Virus record (IMG/VR): IMGVR_UViG_3300013118_000236
Span: 1-52,542 of that record
Direction: 5' to 3' (one strand)
Length of the DNA stretch: 52,542 nucleotides
From: a virus
Taxonomy: Duplodnaviria > Caudoviricetes
The notes under the pieces are model-generated. The model saw only the letters and a list, made by a program, of their open reading frames with translations, did not search any database and had not been told where the DNA came from. Made by a program: the position numbers and the translations under genes. This document shows positions 9,251 to 50,070 of this stretch, piece after piece; the stretch's first letter is position 1; the number at the start of each line of letters is the position of its first letter.

Positions 9251-9327
9251 TGGTACGTCCTGTAGGATTCGAACCTACGGCCCTTGGCTTAGAAGGCCAA
9301 TGCTCTATCCAACTGAGCTAAGGACGC
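9251..9327 (-). tRNA. tRNA-Arg(UCU)
   Basis: GCGTCCTTAGCTCAGTTGGATAGAGCA-TTGGC-CTTCTAA-GCCAA-GGGCCGTAGGTTCGAATCCTACAGGACGTACCA; cloverleaf with encoded CCA. Confidence 0.95.
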
Positions 9328-9712: not shown

Positions 9713-9789
9713 TGGTGGGCTTTGTGGGACTTGAACCCACGACCAACCGGTTATGAGCCGGATGCTCTGACCAACTGAGCTAAAAGCCC
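9713..9789 (-). tRNA. tRNA with CAU anticodon, most likely tRNA-Ile2 (lysidine type)
   Basis: GGGCTTTTAGCTCAGTTGGTCAGAGCA-TCCGG-CTCATAA-CCGGT-TGGTCGTGGGTTCAAGTCCCACAAAGCCCACCA. G1-C72 is paired, so it is not an initiator; the body resembles bacterial Ile2. Confidence 0.9.
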
Positions 9790-9982: not shown

Positions 9983-10058
9983 TGGTGGGTCACGCAGGAT
10001 TCGAACCTGCGGCCGGCGGGTTAAAAGCCCGATGCTCTACCAACTGAGCTAGTGACCC
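9983..10058 (-). tRNA. tRNA-Lys(UUU)
   Basis: GGGTCACTAGCTCAGTTGGTAGAGCA-TCGGG-CTTTTAA-CCCGC-CGGCCGCAGGTTCGAATCCTGCGTGACCCACCA. Confidence 0.95.
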
Positions 10059-24672: not shown

Positions 24673-24681
24673 TAAATCCTC

Positions 24682-24710
24682 AAAAAAATAACCATCGCTA
24701 GATGGTTATT
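24682..24710 (-). terminator. Intrinsic terminator overlapping a promoter
   Basis: AATAACCATC-TAGC-GATGGTTATT followed by a T-run. Confidence 0.7.
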
Positions 24711-24736
24711 ATATCAAACAATCTGTTGATTGTCAA
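24708..24736 (-). promoter_or_regulatory. Consensus sigma70 promoter
   Basis: TTGACA-17 nt-TATAAT. Confidence 0.8.
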
Positions 24737-24739
24737 GCA

Positions 24740-31130: not shown

Positions 31131-34100
31131 CTAACCAAGCAGTTTAAATGTCTTACCCACAGCATAAGTGGAAAAGCCCCACTGCTCGTCATACTTTAAC
31201 TTGGCCATATAGGGCCTATTGGTGAAAATCTTATCTTTTTCTGGCTTGACGCCCCAACATCTAATCTTCTCTGTCTCGTTGTTGGAGTCAATTACCTCAA
31301 CAATCCAATAATTCTTGCCGTTCTTGGTTTTCTTCGGAACAATCTTGCGTGGAATGAACCAACACACGCACAGATCCGAATCAAATTCAGAAATAGGTGG
31401 AATAAATTTATCCTTGAGTCTTTGAATAGTTTCAGTGGTGATTACCAGATTCATTGGGAACACTCCAGTCAGTTCTGACTTAAAGTGAATGATTTCTTCT
31501 TCCGAGAAGTCTCCTTCCTTGCTGTAAGCTTCAATATTCTCAGCAAACTTCTTTCTATTTTTTGGTCTATCAACAACTGCTGCAGACCAAAAATGTTTAC
31601 GACCAGAGAATCTCTCGTCAACAAGCTTATCCATGGCTCCGGCGCGACAGAGGGCATCCAGCGCCTTCTTGTTCAATTTAGAATATGTTATCTCTTCCCG
31701 GAACAATAGGTCTTCAATGTTGTTGAAGGGTCGGTGTTCAATTATCTGCTCCAATGCAGAATCTCCAAAACCCTTAATGGAAGTAAGCGGCTGGATCAAC
31801 GTCGTGTTGTCTGATGCAATCTCCCACACACGTCCGGATTTATTAACGTCCACCGGTGCAATATTGTATCCGAATGACTTTGCAATATTGATTGCTTTTT
31901 CCTTACGGGTCTCAGGCTCTTTATCCAAGAATGCAGCCATCCATTCGGCCTCATAGTAATTCAGTAACCACGCGCACTGATAGGAGATCACACTATAGGA
32001 GACCGCATGTGACTTGTTAAAACCATATCCGGAGAAGTATTCAAACTTATCCCACAGTGCTTGCGCTTCGTCGCGAGAAATGTCTTTTGCCACACAGCCC
32101 TTAATGAATTTGTCATGCAGCCTGCCCTTTACGGAACCTTTGCCTGTTCCCTTCTTGGTTAACACCTTGCGAAGCATGTTACCTTCATCGAGAGTCAATC
32201 CCCCAAGCTTGTGGGCTAACAGGGCGATCTGCTCTTGGAAGATGAGGAATCCAAATGTTTCCTCGGTAATCTCTCGGGCCTCTTCAGAGAGATATCCAAT
32301 GCGATGCGGATGATTTTTTGCGTCCACGTAGTCAGCATCCACACCTGCTGATAATGGGCCCGGGCGAAAGATGGATGTAATAGCTGACACATCAATAATA
32401 TTACGAGGTTTCACTCTGGTGCAAAATCCTTGTGCGCCAGTCTCAGTGAACTGGAATACACCTGCCCACTTGCCTTTATGAAATATGTTTTCGTATACTT
32501 TTTGATCTTCAAGATCAATTACGTCTGGGTGTAAGTTTTCATTGTAGTAGTCGCGTACTTGGGTAAAGGTAGGCTCCTCAACGTTGTGGTAACGACGAAG
32601 TATGTGCTGAATGCAAACTTCCATCATCTTAAGAGTAGATAAGCCGAGCAAATCGAATTTAATGAACCCCATCGGTTCAAGATGACGTACGTTTTGACCC
32701 TCGGCCCATGGGGCCTGACGCACACCACCTGAGTTAATCAGGGGCATACTCTTGTCTAGATCTTCTGCAATAACTACCCCGCCTGCATGACGTGAACATG
32801 AGCGAACTTGGCCAACCAATCCTTCAACGTGTGTTTTTACTTGAGGATACTTGTTTAGATATGCGGTCAGTGTCGGTGAGAATTCCATCACCTCTTCCCA
32901 AGTTGGCACATATACGCCGGCTTTGATGCCGTGCTTACGCTTGGCCTCGGGTGTTGCTTCGCGGATCATAATAGACGTGACTGTGTTGACCTCTGTAAAT
33001 TCTATGTTGTAGAGTTTGGAGATATCTTTAATCAGCGATTTAAGCTGCAGCGTGTTCCAGTTGGAAATTGGCGCAACGCAATCCTCTCCCCACATTTCAA
33101 CAAGTCTCTCTTTGAGTGCCATACTGTCGGACACATCGTAGTCAATGTCAGGATAATCGGTTGCATCAGAACGCAAAAATCTTGAGAACAGAAGGCCATG
33201 CTTGATTGGATCAATTTGGGTGATACCCAGTGCATAGGCAACAAGAGAACCTGCGGCTGAGCCGCGGCCCGGGCCGGCGAGCATCATATTATTGGTGACG
33301 TCAACAATCGCTTTCATGGTAAGGAAATACTTGGAGAAGCCGCGATCATCTATCACATTAAGCTCTCTTCGTAATCTATCCGTGTACTCTTTGTTTGTGT
33401 GTAAGGCACGGTCTTTCAAGCCCTCTAGGGCAAAATTTACTAAGGCCTGTGTGGCGGTAAATCCGGCCGGCACAACAAACTCAGGAAGACGAACCGTGTT
33501 GTCGGGCAGGAATGATTCAATGCGCCCAAAAGCGATCTTGTGTGTTTCTTCAATACTTTGCAAGACTATATCATCGTTGTATTCAAACCCCTGCTCTGCG
33601 GAATATTGTTTGTAACTCTCCCACATTTGATCGCCATTCTTTGGGTATAGCTCATAACCGATCTCTTCAACACCATCAGGCAATTGAGATTCTTCTTCAG
33701 CCCAAGATGGCCGGCCTTTACCGAGCCAACCAAGGCGTTTGTAAAGTTCGCGATCTTTCCAAGCATCGGGGCCCGGATAATGACTATCGGCTGTTGATAT
33801 TAATTTAACATCAAACTCGTCGGCTACCTGCATTACATATTGATTTAATTCATGTTGTTCTTTAATGTTGTTCCATTGGATTTCGGCATACCACCGATCA
33901 CCAAAAACATCGACCATGCGTCTAGTGGTTTCGCGCATGGCTGCCAGCACTGCATCGTCGCTATCATCTCTATTCTCCCAATAGTCGCCGGCGTATACGC
34001 CGCCAAGACAAGCAGAAGAAGCGATAATGCCTTCATTGTATTTCTTGAGAAGCGCATAATCAATACGCGGATAGCGGTAAAAGTTTTCTGGCTGATATGA

Positions 34101-34559
34101 CTCAGAAACTAATTTAAATAGATTGTTTAAGCCCGTCTGGTTCTGTACCAACAATACAAGATGACGTCTGCGGCGCAATATATCTTGGGTTTTCTTGCTG
34201 TTGCCTTCGTCTTCTACGGTGGCGCCCGACTGGGCATCCTTCTTGATACTCTTGGCGCGCTTCTTGTCTGCCATGGCCTGATCATAGGCTTCTCGCCATT
34301 CTGCAATTGAGGGAGTAAAATACGCCTCGCAACCAAAAATAGGCTTGAAGTTTTTACCTTCGGCTTGCATTTTCTTTGCATGCAAAACCTGATATGCTAG
34401 ACCATTCATGTTTCCATGATCGGTTAAGGCTAGCGCCTCGCAGCCATTTTCGTACGCAAAATTCATATGATCCTGCGGAAATCCAATAGCATCAAAAATA
34501 GAACCGGCAACGCTATGTGCATGCAGTCCCACGAACTTAATCTTTGGTTGTTTATTCAT
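31131..34559 (-). CDS. dnaE: DNA polymerase III alpha subunit
   Basis: PHP motifs LHAHS, TDHG, DSHY; GRGSAAGSL; PDIDYD; HAGGVV; KFDLLGL; GFNKSHA; 1142 aa. Confidence 0.97.
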   Translation of the reverse strand: MNKQPKIKFVGLHAHSVAGSIFDAIGFPQDHMNFAYENGCEALALTDHGNMNGLAYQVLHAKKMQAEGKNFKPIFGCEAYFTPSIAEWREAYDQAMADKKRAKSIKKDAQSGATVEDEGNSKKTQDILRRRRHLVLLVQNQTGLNNLFKLVSESYQPENFYRYPRIDYALLKKYNEGIIASSACLGGVYAGDYWENRDDSDDAVLAAMRETTRRMVDVFGDRWYAEIQWNNIKEQHELNQYVMQVADEFDVKLISTADSHYPGPDAWKDRELYKRLGWLGKGRPSWAEEESQLPDGVEEIGYELYPKNGDQMWESYKQYSAEQGFEYNDDIVLQSIEETHKIAFGRIESFLPDNTVRLPEFVVPAGFTATQALVNFALEGLKDRALHTNKEYTDRLRRELNVIDDRGFSKYFLTMKAIVDVTNNMMLAGPGRGSAAGSLVAYALGITQIDPIKHGLLFSRFLRSDATDYPDIDYDVSDSMALKERLVEMWGEDCVAPISNWNTLQLKSLIKDISKLYNIEFTEVNTVTSIMIREATPEAKRKHGIKAGVYVPTWEEVMEFSPTLTAYLNKYPQVKTHVEGLVGQVRSCSRHAGGVVIAEDLDKSMPLINSGGVRQAPWAEGQNVRHLEPMGFIKFDLLGLSTLKMMEVCIQHILRRYHNVEEPTFTQVRDYYNENLHPDVIDLEDQKVYENIFHKGKWAGVFQFTETGAQGFCTRVKPRNIIDVSAITSIFRPGPLSAGVDADYVDAKNHPHRIGYLSEEAREITEETFGFLIFQEQIALLAHKLGGLTLDEGNMLRKVLTKKGTGKGSVKGRLHDKFIKGCVAKDISRDEAQALWDKFEYFSGYGFNKSHAVSYSVISYQCAWLLNYYEAEWMAAFLDKEPETRKEKAINIAKSFGYNIAPVDVNKSGRVWEIASDNTTLIQPLTSIKGFGDSALEQIIEHRPFNNIEDLLFREEITYSKLNKKALDALCRAGAMDKLVDERFSGRKHFWSAAVVDRPKNRKKFAENIEAYSKEGDFSEEEIIHFKSELTGVFPMNLVITTETIQRLKDKFIPPISEFDSDLCVCWFIPRKIVPKKTKNGKNYWIVEVIDSNNETEKIRCWGVKPEKDKIFTNRPYMAKLKYDEQWGFSTYAVGKTFKLLG

Positions 34560-45506: not shown

Positions 45507-46457
45507 TTAAAAAGGTTTAACCTTGTTGTATTCGAGCACAAGAACATCCACGGCCGATGTGAATCGCACTGTCCATGATTGCCCGTTGTCTGTTGAGCTA
45601 CTTATCTTATTGCCTTTACCGCCGGCTATAATCGTCGTCCCATCTGACGCTAATCCCATGATTTGGCCAACATCCGGATTCGCCAGATCGGTAGTGGCCC
45701 ATGACGCACAATTGTCAGTTGATATATATAATTGAGTTCCCTTGTTGGCAGTCATCCAAGTGTTTCCTGTGATGTGACAGATTGCCCAAAGAGCCTCCGA
45801 AATACCGGTTACGGCGCTCCAAGTATCTGTTGTGTCGCTCTCTGTAATTGAGGTTATTCGGTAAGAAGTTGTGCCATTGCCGGCTAAGAACCATACTCCG
45901 TTGTTGTATTCGATACCGTTCGCGCGGGTGGCTGTGGATTCGTACCAGTTCAAGCCATCATCATATGATTTAAGAGTCTTCAGGGTGCCTCCCATGAGCC
46001 ATGTTCCGGCACCATCGGTTGCAAGGCAAAGGTTTAAGCCTGCACCAGATTCAACATCGGTAATTTTAGTCCAGCTATCTCCGCCGTTGGTTGATCTAAA
46101 CACATCGTCGCCAGTTGCGGCGATCCAAGTTCCGTTGTCACCGTACTCAACTGTTCTGGCTGCGTCCGACGTGCCGGAGAAATCGATTGATGACCAAGAG
46201 CCGGAGGTTGTAGGGTCCGCCGAGTACCTGAGTTCAGGACTTGTGTTGGTAGCAACAATCCACCGAGCATCATCACTGTCATCCTTGCCAAAAGATATAT
46301 CCCAATAATCAGATGTTTCTCCGGCCGGGCTTTCATACTCAGTCCAACTTTCAGCATCTGATGAGTACATCACCCGGCCGTCCCTACCGACGCCGGCCCA
46401 CAACGGGACGTGATCCTCTTCCTCTCTCCAATGGTTCATTTGAAATTTGTATGTCAC
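45507..46457 (-). CDS. BNR/Asp-box beta-propeller, paralog of 12191..13219
   Basis: STNGGDSW, SYDDGLNW, STDNGQSW; shared C-terminus EYNKVKPF; start uncertain (GTG 46457 or ATG 46439). Confidence 0.7.
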   Translation of the reverse strand: MTYKFQMNHWREEEDHVPLWAGVGRDGRVMYSSDAESWTEYESPAGETSDYWDISFGKDDSDDARWIVATNTSPELRYSADPTTSGSWSSIDFSGTSDAARTVEYGDNGTWIAATGDDVFRSTNGGDSWTKITDVESGAGLNLCLATDGAGTWLMGGTLKTLKSYDDGLNWYESTATRANGIEYNNGVWFLAGNGTTSYRITSITESDTTDTWSAVTGISEALWAICHITGNTWMTANKGTQLYISTDNCASWATTDLANPDVGQIMGLASDGTTIIAGGKGNKISSSTDNGQSWTVRFTSAVDVLVLEYNKVKPF

Positions 46458-46501
46458 TGGTGTGTGCCCCCTGATTATATATAGCATGGAGGGGCCAAGG
46501 C

Positions 46502-46529
46502 GGCAGACTTATACCGGTCTGCCAGCGGT
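46502..46529 (-). repeat. H-type pseudoknot repeat, copy D
   Basis: ACCG-CT-GGCAGAC-CGGT-ATAA-GTCTGCC. Confidence 0.8.
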
Positions 46530-46540
46530 CACTGAGGCCT

Positions 46541-47755
46541 TTAAGCCGCAAGTTTTCGTAGACCAAACGCAAATACGTTAGTTTTTACACAATCGGTAAG
46601 CTTTTTGATTCTCTTGGCGCGTGCGCCCGCATAATGGGGCAAATTAATCCAAGTAAAGTAATATTGTTGTTTTGAAACTTCGTCAGGATCTAAATTATTT
46701 GCGATGTATCTTGTTTTCTCGTTAGCATACGCAGTATCACTTTGACTAATAAGACTGTCGTCTAATTCTTTTAATTTGTTAAAAAACAAAGAATAAGAAT
46801 TGCAATCAATGTCATAGTTGTTATCATAGACCCACTCACAAACATAGAGTACAGCCCAACACATTTTTGCTGCTATTGTTTTTGATGGAGGGTAATAAGT
46901 TTGATTACAAATTGTGTGCCTCCACATGTCTAGAATCTCTTCCACTCTCTGTATGTCATTCGAAGAGTACGGACACCCTTCATCAGAAATAGAGTGATAA
47001 CCCAGGCCCATAGAATAAAAACGATCTATTTCATCGGAGGATAAGCCCCAATGATTGGTTTTGTTATTGGCTGGGTTGTTCCTCATAAGGACCATGGTCA
47101 TTTTAGCCACTAACTCATCATCCAGCATCCTAGTAGCATCTTTTCTGCTGACAACTCTCATAAGAGCGTCGTCAAGAGTTTTTCTAGTTTTTCTTACCCA
47201 ATCAGAAATTGGCGTTTTAAGAGAATTTCTTTTTTCATGGGCATTTAATGGCTCACCAGAATTTAGTGCTAAGAAAATATCCGATAATGTATCTTTTCCA
47301 CAAGGAGGGGCTACTTCAACATTAAGAAAACCTCCATCCAAAATGCGATCACGAAGGCGCTCAGGAAAATCTTTAAATAATTTATTTGTTACCGTTTGCG
47401 ACACATCGTCAGCATCCAAAAAAGTTCCGGAAATAGGAAACTTATCATTTAAGAATTCAACAATCTTTTTTGATCTGTTTTGACCGTCTAAAGAGATATA
47501 GCGATACCCCTTGTTTAGAATTCTATGAAAATATTTGGCTGATACGCGATCACCGTTTTTTCTAGAAAACTTTAAACACTTTTTAACGTCGGCCACAACG
47601 ATTGTTGTAAGTTGGGACCAGCCGCGGCATACAGAAACCATGAACAGCGCTAAGAGTTCGTTATTCCAAACTTCCCGGCGCTGGTGCTCCTCTGCATAAT
47701 ATACTTCCGTGAAATCATGATCTTCACGGAACTCTTTTAAACTAACTAATGACAT
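46541..47755 (-). CDS. DUF262 (GmrS/ParB-like) domain protein
   Basis: QRREVW, SLDGQNRS, IF..LNSG.PL...EKRN; GGAGGT RBS. Confidence 0.75.
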   Translation of the reverse strand: MSLVSLKEFREDHDFTEVYYAEEHQRREVWNNELLALFMVSVCRGWSQLTTIVVADVKKCLKFSRKNGDRVSAKYFHRILNKGYRYISLDGQNRSKKIVEFLNDKFPISGTFLDADDVSQTVTNKLFKDFPERLRDRILDGGFLNVEVAPPCGKDTLSDIFLALNSGEPLNAHEKRNSLKTPISDWVRKTRKTLDDALMRVVSRKDATRMLDDELVAKMTMVLMRNNPANNKTNHWGLSSDEIDRFYSMGLGYHSISDEGCPYSSNDIQRVEEILDMWRHTICNQTYYPPSKTIAAKMCWAVLYVCEWVYDNNYDIDCNSYSLFFNKLKELDDSLISQSDTAYANEKTRYIANNLDPDEVSKQQYYFTWINLPHYAGARAKRIKKLTDCVKTNVFAFGLRKLAA

Positions 47756-47778
47756 TTTACACCTCCAGTTTATTGTGT

Positions 47779-47812
47779 GATTAAACCAATGTCATGTGAC
47801 AAACGTTTAATC
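47779..47812. repeat. Inverted repeat in the leader of the DUF262 gene
   Basis: GATTAAAC-N3-TGTCA-N2-TGACA-N3-GTTTAATC. Confidence 0.6.
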
Positions 47813-47830
47813 TAGTCTTTCGTTAAAGGC

Positions 47831-47859
47831 GGCAGACTTTACACCGGTCTGCCAGCGGC
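47831..47859 (-). repeat. H-type pseudoknot repeat, copy C
   Basis: GCCG-CT-GGCAGAC-CGGT-GTAAA-GTCTGCC. Confidence 0.8.
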
Positions 47860-47866
47860 TTTTGTT

Positions 47867-47977
47867 TTACTCCACTGCAGTGTCTGCAGAGGCGGCGGTA
47901 TCTTCCGCCGTGTCTTCATCCTTATCCCCACAACCCATCAATAGGGTCGCAGCAAGGACTGGTAGAACGAGTCTCAT
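47867..47977 (-). CDS. 36-aa micro-lipoprotein
   Basis: Read manually: MRLVLPVLAATLLMG-CGDKDEDTAEDTAASADTAVE; lipobox LMGC; AAGGAG RBS. Confidence 0.75.
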   Translation of the reverse strand: MRLVLPVLAATLLMGCGDKDEDTAEDTAASADTAVE

Positions 47978-47999
47978 TTTGCTTTATCTCCTTAAAAGC

Positions 48000-48028
48000 G
48001 GCAGACTTTTTACCGGTCTGCCAGCGGC
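48000..48028 (-). repeat. H-type pseudoknot repeat, copy B
   Basis: GCCG-CT-GGCAGAC-CGGT-AAAAA-GTCTGCC. Confidence 0.8.
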
Positions 48029-48036
48029 TTTTTTCA

Positions 48037-48309
48037 CTACTCGGTTGTAGTTGTTTCCGTAGTAGTTGTTGTCTCACCTGTAGTTTCAGTGGTTGTTCCG
48101 CCTTCCGTGGTTCCACCGCTCGCTGTTTCAGTTGCGGTGGTGGAAGAAACTTCAATAGAATTTGTAGTCTCCCCAATGGTGGTGTTGTCTGACACCGTTG
48201 CCGGATCTACAGAACAGGTCCCGTAGGCGGTTGCGACAACTAAGACACCTCCGACGACAGTAACCTGTATCTTCCATTTAGCCCATACGGACTTCATCCA
48301 ATCTAACAT
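48037..48309 (-). CDS. Membrane-anchored Thr-rich protein
   Basis: Start MLDWMK behind AAGGAGA; one hydrophobic segment then a T/E-rich tail. Confidence 0.7.
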   Translation of the reverse strand: MLDWMKSVWAKWKIQVTVVGGVLVVATAYGTCSVDPATVSDNTTIGETTNSIEVSSTTATETASGGTTEGGTTTETTGETTTTTETTTTE

Positions 48310-48340
48310 AATATTTCTCCTTCTATGTTGTTGAAAAGGG

Positions 48341-48367
48341 GCGCCCATTAACCGGGGCGCTATCGGC
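48341..48367 (-). repeat. H-type pseudoknot repeat, copy A (covariant stem 2)
   Basis: GCCG-ATA-GCGCCC-CGGT-TAAT-GGGCGC. Confidence 0.7.
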
Positions 48368-48375
48368 TTAATGTG

Positions 48376-49146
48376 TTAACCAGCCATCAACTCATCGAAG
48401 GCTTTGTCAACGTCGTTAGCTTCCTTTTTACCATACGACTCAGTTTGGCGCGAGCGACCTTCAGCAGAAGAATCGGAGGCCAACTGTTCGTCAAGAATGG
48501 CATCAACCTGTTCGGGCGTCAGGCGCTCAAACAAGCTGTCAAAATCGGGCATATTTTCCAGAAGCCCGGGAAGAGCGTCAGAGTCACTTAGGAGGGGACT
48601 AGTGTTACGACGCATCTTCAAGTTGGTTTGTGGGTACGCACCGGGACGAGTGGGCTTCGTATAAGTGAGCGTAATGTCAGTACCCTCTACCGAATCGGTG
48701 ATATCACCGTATTCAGGATCAAGAATATATCCTAAAAGCAACTCATACGCGGTCTTTCCGTAACCATAGACCTTAATACCCTCATCCTCGCGTCCACGCA
48801 CCACTACCGGAGAGAAATAACGTTGACGCACAAAAAGCGACTTTGCCAACTTCTTGCTTTCCTCATCATTCTTCTCGGTGCCCTCGCGCCACAAAGATGA
48901 CGCGAATTCACATATAGGACAGCGTTCGCCAAAGTTGCGCTTCGGACAAAGCACACCGCCCTTATGATCTCCCACATTATAGTGGAAATACATTTCCTTT
49001 AACGGATCACCATCTGATGTTGGCACGATCCGAATATCTTGGTCTCCTTCATCTGGCTTAAACCAGTGTGAGGTACCATTATCTCTAGTTCCCTCGCCAC
49101 GCAATGTGGCGAGCTTTTGTTTCATTAGTTCCATGTTAATAGACAT
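48376..49146 (-). CDS. Single-stranded DNA-binding protein (T4 gp32-like)
   Basis: WFKP..G...IRIVP, HY...CPK...CPICE, YGDITD..GTDI, acidic tail DVDKAFDELM. Confidence 0.85.
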   Translation of the reverse strand: MSINMELMKQKLATLRGEGTRDNGTSHWFKPDEGDQDIRIVPTSDGDPLKEMYFHYNVGDHKGGVLCPKRNFGERCPICEFASSLWREGTEKNDEESKKLAKSLFVRQRYFSPVVVRGREDEGIKVYGYGKTAYELLLGYILDPEYGDITDSVEGTDITLTYTKPTRPGAYPQTNLKMRRNTSPLLSDSDALPGLLENMPDFDSLFERLTPEQVDAILDEQLASDSSAEGRSRQTESYGKKEANDVDKAFDELMAG

Positions 49147-49200
49147 TACTTTTTTCTCCTTTTTGTTTTGATAAAGTATACTGAGCTTTCCTCAGCATCT

Positions 49201-49229
49201 AATGTATTACTCTTGCTCTAGCTTGTCAA
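49201..49229 (-). promoter_or_regulatory. Sigma70-type promoter for SSB, followed by a 5' hairpin and A-rich leader
   Basis: TTGACA-17 nt-TACATT; then TGCTGAG-GAAAG-CTCAGTA hairpin. Confidence 0.65.
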
Positions 49230-50070
49230 GAGTTTTTTGTTGTATTACGTTGGTATGGGCAACGCAAAACCCAAAGTCTGTTTCAAAAGGCGACTCGTAA
49301 ATTGCATAAGAAACATTTTTAAATGCATTCCTAGGTTTATTTTTGAGATGGCCTATAATATTTTTGTGTAAATCTCCGTCCTTTTCCAATTTTTCAGTTG
49401 ATATACAGATATAATAACATACATCACGAGAGCTGTCAAGATCAAAATACCAATTTTCTTGAAGAGTTTGTGGGTCAATCCTCCCCAAAGAGCGGATTCT
49501 TTGAATGCCGGGGGCGGCCACTAAATTCCCAATAATTGGTGATGTATGATCAAATAAGTTCTTATAATGTACACAATAATAAATAGTTTTATTTATAGTT
49601 TCAAAGTATTTTTTAATAGGTACTGAGCCTATAGATTCTTCTAATATTGGGTTACTAAAAATTGTAAAAGAGTTGAATAAGCCGGACCTCGCATATTGCT
49701 GTAGAACACTAAAAATAGCACGTTCTTGGAGTTTCGCAGCACCCAACAATAGATCAATATCTGGCTCAATGTAAAAGATGTCGATTTTCTTATCTTTTAG
49801 TTGTTGCAAGATAGTCAACGTTGCGTTAGCAGTTCTCGCTGAACCACACAAGAATACTTGCACACGTTCCTCCATACTGGAAAAGAATTTCTCCAAGTTG
49901 GGAGTGCTTGTTTCGTAATCTTCAAGATTTGCTTGATATTTTATCTTTCGCTTGTATTTTGTATTTCTTTCAACATTATCAGACATAACATAGCAGTTAT
50001 ACTCTTTGTTGTTGGAAAAGCAATTAACAATATTTTCACCAGCAGTCCCAATACCCAAAAGTGATATCAC
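49207..50070 (-). CDS. Divergent tubulin/FtsZ-like (PhuZ-like) protein
   Basis: N-terminal LLGIGTAGENIV (T1 loop) and FtsZ-like layout; the GGGTGS signature appears replaced by CGSARTAN. Confidence 0.55.
   Translation of the reverse strand: MISLLGIGTAGENIVNCFSNNKEYNCYVMSDNVERNTKYKRKIKYQANLEDYETSTPNLEKFFSSMEERVQVFLCGSARTANATLTILQQLKDKKIDIFYIEPDIDLLLGAAKLQERAIFSVLQQYARSGLFNSFTIFSNPILEESIGSVPIKKYFETINKTIYYCVHYKNLFDHTSPIIGNLVAAPGIQRIRSLGRIDPQTLQENWYFDLDSSRDVCYYICISTEKLEKDGDLHKNIIGHLKNKPRNAFKNVSYAIYESPFETDFGFCVAHTNVIQQKTLDKLEQE

Follow-up and report, generated by a model that had tools for sequence, protein, structure and literature searches.

A predicted compact pseudoknot recurs behind single-strand DNA-binding and major capsid protein genes of phages, where it may act as a gene-end signal

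The stretch of DNA analysed here, which we call the window, is a 52.5-kb piece (52,542 nt, taken whole) of the uncultured virus record IMGVR_UViG_3300013118_000236, with a completeness estimate of about 27%. Its genes lie mostly on the minus strand and include, according to Pfam, those of a gp32-family single-strand DNA-binding protein (SSB), a RecA-like recombinase, a DnaE-type polymerase and a ribonucleotide reductase. Our subject is a motif of about 30 nt that follows the SSB gene and each of the next three genes, and that the original prediction had described as four minus-strand copies of a covarying H-type pseudoknot. The positions of all four copies proved exact to the base, as did their gaps behind four consecutive stop codons: these stops lie at 48378-48376, 48039-48037, 47869-47867 and 46543-46541, and stem 1 begins 8, 8, 7 and 11 nt later, respectively. 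The genes and copies are listed below along the minus strand, each copy with its score under R1, a covariance model built from 32 sequences with stem 2 as the sole annotated stem, and with its parts, namely the arms of stem 1 (S1a, S1b), the arms of stem 2 (S2a, S2b) and loops 1 and 3 (L1, L3). ORF stands for open reading frame.

48376..49146, minus strand: gene of the gp32-family SSB (Pfam PF08804, E 1.8e-16; PHROG 1192, E 1.9e-27), with copy A after its stop
48333..48367, minus strand: copy A and its tail, CCCUUUUC; R1 48.9 bits; S1a GCCG 48367-48364, L1 AUA, S2a GCGCCC 48360-48355, S1b CGGU 48354-48351, L3 UAAU, S2b GGGCGC 48346-48341
48037..48309, minus strand: 90-aa ORF between copies A and B, taken from the ORF list; lipobox-like N-terminus and acidic Thr/Glu-rich tail
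47992..48028, minus strand: copy B and its tail, GCUUUUAA, with an A-tract immediately upstream; R1 60.7 bits; S1a GCCG 48028-48025, L1 CU, S2a GGCAGAC 48022-48016, S1b CGGU 48015-48012, L3 AAAAA, S2b GUCUGCC 48006-48000
47867..47977, minus strand: 36-aa lipoprotein-like ORF between copies B and C, translating without an internal stop
47823..47859, minus strand: copy C and its tail, GCCUUUAA; R1 55.6 bits; S1a GCCG 47859-47856, L1 CU, S2a GGCAGAC 47853-47847, S1b CGGU 47846-47843, L3 GUAAA, S2b GUCUGCC 47837-47831
46541..47755, minus strand: 404-aa ORF between copies C and D, matching only PHROGs 2598 and 1583, both of unknown function
46494..46529, minus strand: copy D and its tail, GCCUUGGC, without a U-run; R1 37.2 bits; S1a ACCG 46529-46526, L1 CU, S2a GGCAGAC 46523-46517, S1b CGGU 46516-46513, L3 AUAA, S2b GUCUGCC 46508-46502

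Copies B-D are identical over 16 + 9 nt, while stem 2 of copy A differs. The 16-mer has three matches in the window at up to three mismatches, against 0.16 expected, a number reached in none of 100 shuffles, and an unfiltered R1 scan of the whole window returned the four copies at 37.2-60.7 bits, followed by a next best site at 11.5 bits. A chance origin of the four copies is thus excluded. We also considered the RNA repeats of type III toxin-antitoxin systems, which are ToxI-like, abutting and tandem, and placed before an endoribonuclease toxin. This candidate was rejected, as the copies lie 169-1330 nt apart with ORFs in between; Pfam and PHROG scans of the neighbouring ORFs (PADLOC was not searched) revealed no toxin family.

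On viral contigs there are 564 relatives of the SSB protein, and the best 80 loci were retained. Searching them with R1, the covariance-model check that had been proposed, gave 163 copies in the 80 loci, 1-5 per locus and with different small ORFs between them. A copy begins 0-60 nt behind the SSB gene in 76 loci; three of the other four stop at or just past this gene, and the remaining one (L045) carries a diverged version that R1 missed. Stem 2 is strongly supported by these sequences. Among 91 distinct ones, 99.4% of the cells are paired and six of the seven pairs change on both sides. An eighth pair, between the U before stem 2 and a G or A after it, can form in 76 of 90 sequences (U-G in 49, U-A in 27). 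The stem is otherwise free in sequence among the SSB relatives, where we found, for example, GCGCCC, GGCACCC, GGUGCCC and GGCAGAG.

All 163 copies are on the strand of the SSB gene and none is upstream of it. Moreover, the 49 U-G pairs at the eighth position of stem 2 and the 53 G-U pairs found at the fourth position of stem 1 would be mismatches on the opposite strand. Strand-specific G-U pairs together with a constant orientation indicate that selection acts on the transcript.

Stem 1 is a different matter. Within the window lineage its core pairs, CCG/CGG, are invariant in all 91 rows and, since they never vary, are uninformative for or against pairing. The covariation initially read from copy A versus copies B-D therefore stands for stem 2 and falls for stem 1. 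At the fourth pair, the 91 rows have G-U in 53, G-C in 13, C-G in 8, A-U and U-G in one each, and no pair in 15. With this last number, the alternation of A-U and G-U in stem 1 becomes a weak sign of the transcribed strand, although the strand itself is upheld by the uniform orientation of the copies and the frequent G-U pairs. The invariant core and the 15 unpaired rows speak for an ordinary terminator hairpin, whose flanking CCG/CGG would be kept unpaired, by descent or for some other cause. Likewise, folding tools that have no pseudoknot model return a plain hairpin as the nested minimum-energy structure of each copy, at modest z-scores (-1.1 to -2.2).

Because covariation of stem 1 could not be decided from the window, viral contigs were searched with stem 2 fixed and stem 1 left free. 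With GGCAGAC as stem 2, the pattern occurred in at least 120 viral stretches and yielded 93 distinct instance-orientations other than CCG/CGG. Among the matches listed, a stem 1 of at least 5 bp was present in 9 of the 93, against about 1.0 expected from permuted loops, while registers shifted by one to two bases gave 2, 0 and 2. With GGCACCC (at least 118 viral stretches), it was present in 10 of 125 among the matches listed, against about 1.4 expected and 1, 0 and 3 in other registers. The variants of stem 1 recovered in this way include CCCGCG/CGCGGG, UACUCG/CGAGUG, CCUCG/CGAGG, GGACG/CGUCC, UGGCG/CGCCA, CUCUG/CAGAG, CACG/CGUG, GCC/GGC and GCG/CGC. They occur on unrelated contigs in the same gene context, after an SSB gene in L281 and after major head proteins in L321 and L338.

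The fourth and fifth pairs were then assessed on copies for which the search had fixed CCG/CGG alone of stem 1. A pair can form at the fourth position in 37 of 45 bacterial-genome copies, where 26.2 were expected, and in 20 of the 27 viral ones, against an expectation of 12.8, values that none of 10000 permutations reached in either set; in the bacterial genomes the pairs are C-G in 24 cases, U-A in 5, and G-C, A-U, U-G and G-U in 2 each. At the fifth position there is no pairing signal (8/32 against 9.1 expected; 4/20 against 4.5), which indicates that stem 1 is typically 4 bp long. A gapless 81-row alignment, selected by a T-rich tail as its sole filter and still noisy, gave a covariation score of 0.297, against 0.181 +/- 0.021 for shuffles (0/500 reached it) and 0.107-0.178 for slid registers.

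From these comparisons we conclude that the predicted stem 1 covaries in other phages, and only in the exact register, so that the claim of a real stem rather than a simple hairpin holds up in the wider phage diversity. An ordinary hairpin appears improbable to us: unrelated phages show two-sided changes of stem 1 in a single register and in the same gene context, the loops of 8-16 nt that such a hairpin would have are atypical of plain terminators, and a terminator scan missed the copies.

Taken together, the covariation of both stems supports an H-type pseudoknot of CPK-1 geometry. A 4-bp stem 1 and a loop 1 of 1-2 nt are combined with a stem 2 of 7-8 bp that directly abuts stem 1 and with an A-rich loop 3, most frequently of 4-5 nt (70% A against a background of 31% in the SSB relatives; 41% against 22% in the genome set). 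CPK-1 pseudoknots are defined by a stem 2 of 6-7 bp, a loop 1 of 1-2 nt and no base between the stems, and have the T2/T6 gene 32 pseudoknot as prototype (PMC3988561, source available in part). The likeness to the geometry of the T-even gene 32 pseudoknot, first proposed from the window alone, thus holds at the level of this structural class. In the window, stem 2 has 6 bp in copy A and 7 bp in copies B-D; loop 1 is AUA (3 nt) in copy A, with its shorter stem 2, and CU in copies B-D, and comes down to 1 nt if the U pairs; and S1b directly follows S2a in 91 of the 91 aligned rows. On the model of this class, we infer that the two stems would form simultaneously and stack.

The motif is not confined to the relatives of the window. 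At least 119 viral stretches contain the exact 16-mer, some of them on contigs of 40-68% G+C whose genes are unrelated, and a pattern of 22 specified bases occurs in 45 bacterial genome records, mostly once in each, where by our own estimate less than one would be expected by chance. Among these carriers are Verrucomicrobia, Lentisphaerae, Bacteroidia and Alpha-, Beta- and Gammaproteobacteria, as well as an actinobacterium, Nitrospira, a planctomycete and a Saccharibacteria genome. The sources are marine, gut and soil-type records and the prophage-like regions of at least 45 bacterial species. On the other hand, four relatives of the window scanned whole, three of them estimated to be complete (146-203 kb), hold only 3, 1, 1 and 1 copies; in the 194-kb record and, judging by locus coordinates, in the 203-kb one, they adjoin the SSB gene. 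With 1-3 copies per complete relative, the motif is not the general terminator of the phage. In GenBank, short-query blastn with two copies of the motif gave partial matches only (E 0.2-8); the model confirmed one of them, which lies in a faecal phage record that carries no annotation (L351), with a score of 35.5 bits. Named relatives of one capsid gene that precedes the motif, in a pelagiphage, a spring-water podovirus and a Ralstonia phage, do not have the motif behind them, and there the next gene starts 6-13 nt on.

The breadth of this distribution raises the possibility of a specific functional RNA, either a pseudoknot that binds a ligand or acts as a catalyst, or a site for a conserved protein such as RNA polymerase, a ribonuclease or a phage factor. 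In each case any effect at the gene end would be secondary. The 22-base pattern shared by bacterial genomes of many phyla would fit such a role, and so would an A that 90 of 91 rows conserve three bases ahead of the 3' arm of stem 2, the composition of loop 1 (C or A, then U), and the small number of copies per genome with their ties to particular genes. We nevertheless regard it as unlikely, since stem 2 is free to vary among the SSB relatives, which argues for shape over sequence, the identity across phyla is partly a matter of ascertainment, no partner is known, and none of the known ribozyme or riboswitch models matches the motif.

Which genes precede the motif was asked with the longest frame ending just before each copy, a crude measure that does not amount to gene calling; a six-frame filter for intergenic instances only called 92 of 105 instances coding, was too harsh and was abandoned. 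Of 74 upstream frames listed, 67 were scanned, four near-duplicates and three frames of up to 43 aa having been dropped. With PHROGs, families of major head proteins were matched by 7 + 6 + 1 + 1 frames, i.e., about 13-15 of the 67 as families may overlap on one protein, and single-strand DNA-binding families (gp32-like, gp2.5-like and two SSB families) by 6 + 5 + 1 + 2 + 2, or up to 16 of the 67. Pfam is in agreement, with capsid families in 6, 5 and 2 cases, gp32 in 6, and SSB, Enc34-type and tail tube families in 2 each. The downstream frames, 68 of which were scanned out of 89 listed after 21 duplicates, very short frames and antisense frames had been dropped by hand, are diverse, with tail tubular proteins (8), primases and recombinases among them. 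Recurrent families upstream and diverse ones downstream indicate that the motif is associated with the gene that precedes it, typically that of an SSB or a major capsid protein. Some unrelated contigs and bacterial records (L229, L245, L321, L335 and L338) have two copies each, behind consecutive genes, and in L321 and L338 one of the two preceding genes encodes a head protein; the staircase arrangement is thus not peculiar to the window. A tRNA gene may also adjoin the motif in related loci, coming after it in L022/L023 and before it in L107.

This gene context bears on two further explanations. The motif adjoins a gp32-family gene and shares its fold class with the T2/T6 gene 32 pseudoknot, so that it might be an SSB-specific site, serving autoregulation or the loading of the gp32-like protein. 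Yet its place is 3' of the gene, and that of the T4 operator is 5', 67 nt upstream of the start codon (PMC3014915, source available in part), and it also follows capsid genes as well as genes of gp32-like, gp2.5-like, bacterial-type and Enc34-type proteins. Because of this spread over capsid genes and several SSB families, we consider SSB loading or autoregulation very unlikely. The second explanation is a recoding stimulator, acting on stop-codon read-through or frameshifting. The gaps of the window copies do resemble the 5-9 nt spacer of recoding pseudoknots (PMC3988561, source available in part), and the SSB frame of the window continues into the next ORF. However, 44 of 46 relatives have another in-frame stop fewer than 40 codons on, frequently after 0-3, and the distance from stop to motif ranges in other phages from about 0 to about 50 nt, so that a spacing of 7-11 nt is no general feature. 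Stop-codon read-through was rejected on account of these early stops, and we give the recoding explanation as a whole almost no credence.

Phage gene-end signals are commonly regarded as interchangeable hairpins. What we observe is a motif placed at gene ends, on the RNA strand, after SSB and capsid genes, and it is this position that forms the basis of a role at the gene end. We believe that the pseudoknot probably acts there as a leaky terminator combined with a 3' stabiliser that blocks exonucleases, two roles that we infer from sequence features. At least four T within 10 nt are found in the tails of 22 of 27 viral copies and of 23 of 45 bacterial-genome copies; in copies A-C, 3-4 U lie no more than 2-3 nt from the stem; and A-tracts lie upstream of the motif in the window lineage, as seen in the R1 consensus. 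In the mechanism we propose, the upstream arm of the emerging transcript would pair with the first bases of what is otherwise an over-long hairpin loop. Next, the GC-rich stem 2 would close and stack on stem 1. The resulting helix of about 12 bp, with the U-rich stretch behind it, would most likely work as an intrinsic terminator that leaks and as a barrier to 3'-to-5' exonucleases. The part of stem 1 would be to tie down the over-long loop and to add a stacked helix. As a consequence, the upstream message, here that of the SSB, could accumulate above the genes behind it, and every further copy would lower expression by another step. Of the functions originally put forward, termination or an exonuclease block is the best reading, and loading of the SSB the one that fares badly.

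Several points weigh against this reading. A U-run is missing from copy D, as is a T-rich tail from about half of the bacterial-genome copies, and a consensus terminator scan of the window flagged none of the four copies. In 74 of 104 distinct contexts there is no promoter and the ribosome-binding site and start codon of the next gene lie at most 60 nt away, so that termination can only be partial at most. A gene-end signal of a purely generic kind does not account for the small number of copies in complete relatives. From two oligo-dT marine RNA libraries, which contained 5-8% of the words searched for, came seven short contigs, mostly those of relatives, that are uninformative on transcript ends and strand; one contig matched just the 35 nt of copy B. 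Finally, the permutation controls ignore kinship between sequences, and the identity of stem 2 across phyla is due in part to search patterns that fixed this stem.

The same 104 distinct contexts were searched for promoters behind the motif (TTGACW-N16-18-TANNNT within 70 nt). A consensus TTGACA-N17-TATAAT promoter directly after the motif was present in 11 of them, and in the loci compared (L004, L011, L014 and L015) the copy that bears it is the last of its cluster. After the window copies the promoter-like matches reach just 9/12, and none of the four is followed by a strong promoter. Early-type promoters at this position are also a point in favour of a boundary repeat acting at the DNA level, in the manner of the PeSL elements discussed below, by which small gene cassettes would be swapped through recombination. 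The stretch behind the SSB gene is indeed plastic, with its varying number of copies per locus and the different small ORFs between them, and copies B-D have their 16 + 9 nt in common although the intervening genes are unrelated. But both stems covary and the strand-specific G-U pairs indicate selection on RNA, and single copies without a partner repeat follow capsid genes in unrelated phages. We therefore find it improbable that the main role of the motif is at the DNA level, although a role as DNA boundary may be compatible with the role in RNA.

Considering all of the above, our preferred reading remains a pseudoknot that ends transcripts leakily and protects them. A bolder claim, which we put forward as tentative and consider possible rather than likely, is that the motif represents a widespread and distinct class of phage RNA, namely a CPK-1 pseudoknot of about 30 nt after SSB and major capsid genes, in phages of many bacterial phyla, acting through a specific conserved interaction such as stalling 3'-to-5' exoribonucleases or engaging RNA polymerase, and not as a generic hairpin. 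If true, it would be the bacterial-virus counterpart of the exonuclease-resistant viral RNAs. A defined pseudoknot recurs here behind the two most heavily expressed kinds of phage genes. Should it raise termination or block exonucleases, this would explain the dose of SSB and capsid relative to the downstream genes, provide a transcript-end marker for annotating uncultured phages, and offer synthetic biology a very small, portable stabiliser or terminator part. The motif would also lend itself easily to testing if a plain terminator hairpin can be improved on by a pseudoknot.

Some further observations concern the neighbourhood. The two small ORFs at 48037-48309 and 47867-47977 are alike in having lipobox-like N-termini and acidic Thr/Glu-rich tails, and neither gave any family match in Pfam and PHROG scans. 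Close relatives differ in the number and identity of such ORFs, and in one of them, L004, a promoter stands at the site of the 404-aa ORF of the window. All matches of the SSB protein to GenBank phages are below 37% identity, and megablast and blastn searches of GenBank phage DNA with regions of 2.9 kb and 1.4 kb gave zero matches. Elsewhere in the window, a complete DnaE-type polymerase III alpha subunit, comprising PHP, polymerase, finger and HHH domains, is encoded at 31131-34559 on the minus strand, and three tRNA genes lie on the minus strand at 9254-9327, 9716-9789 and 9986-10058. Near-perfect sigma-70-type promoters (11-12 of 12 matches) precede several minus-strand genes, at 52425-52396, 51314-51286, 49439-49411 and 44281-44253 (minus strand). 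Their presence suggests that the replication module is driven by early transcription with the host polymerase. At 24673-24739 (minus strand), just behind a promoter-like site, a plain hairpin combines a 4-nt loop with a run of seven U; the phage thus also has ordinary terminator-like hairpins elsewhere.

The 5' side of the SSB gene has features of its own. Upstream of it, 49147-49235 (minus strand) is associated with a consensus promoter whose -35 hexamer lies within an inverted repeat. After the promoter come a 5' hairpin with covariation among relatives, a conserved UAUACUUUA and an unstructured, A-rich leader that extends to the ribosome-binding site. This element could be a candidate operator of gp32 type or a 5' stabiliser. 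A pseudoknot between the hairpin loop and the sequence downstream was examined and rejected as unsupported, the loop changing without compensation.

As regards known RNAs, the small pseudoknot behind the genes is uncatalogued and matches no Rfam family, in agreement with the expectation that it would fall outside existing families. At gathering thresholds, Rfam 15 matched only the three tRNAs in the window, and at E up to 10 over 46300-48500 it gave four weak matches, none of them on a copy. The strings of the motif occur in no relevant paper of the literature searched, and no description of a family of pseudoknotted phage terminators was found there. A catalogue of about 10,000 candidate viral RNAs includes structures upstream of gp32 genes and many terminator-like candidates (PMC10690425, available in part); its supplementary tables were not compared and may hold an equivalent entry.

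Structurally, the motif is closest to the CPK-1 class, with the T2/T6 gene 32 and SRV-1 frameshift pseudoknots as prototypes, in which the stems can stack as a quasi-continuous helix. On the measures of this class the window copies have a stem 2 of 6-7 bp, a loop 1 of 2-3 nt and 0 nt between the stems. CPK-1 is nevertheless a structural class, neither a sequence family nor a function, and the motif has no sequence likeness to any model that could be tested; unlike the prototypes, it sits behind genes, and not in a 5' leader or at a slippery site. With the gene 32 operator of T4, T2 and RB69 it shares the association of a pseudoknot with a gp32-family gene. In T4 this operator is a 5' pseudoknot followed by an unstructured A+U-rich stretch over the ribosome-binding site, and gene 32 transcripts are the most stable T4 mRNAs (PMC3014915, source available in part). 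The copies described here are all 3' of genes and also stand behind those of capsid proteins and other SSB families, and the motif is not a T4-type gene 32 operator.

Two other systems are found, like the motif, between genes. PeSLs, the composite terminator-promoter modules of T4-type phages (PMC4122927), resemble it as repeated intergenic stem-loops that flank variable small ORFs in a plastic region and are sometimes followed by an early promoter. The differences are that the motif has a consensus promoter in just the 11 contexts noted above and no strong one after the window copies, and that PeSLs are not described as pseudoknots in the available part of that source. Lastly, intrinsic terminators and intercistronic stabilising hairpins have in common with the motif a GC-rich stem, in many copies a U-rich tail and often an upstream A-tract, as well as the location between co-directional genes, behind the most-needed one and at times before a new promoter. 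The motif departs from such terminators in its loop of 8-16 nt, whose first bases would pair with the upstream flank, in those copies that have no U-run, and in its presence at just 1-5 sites per genome.

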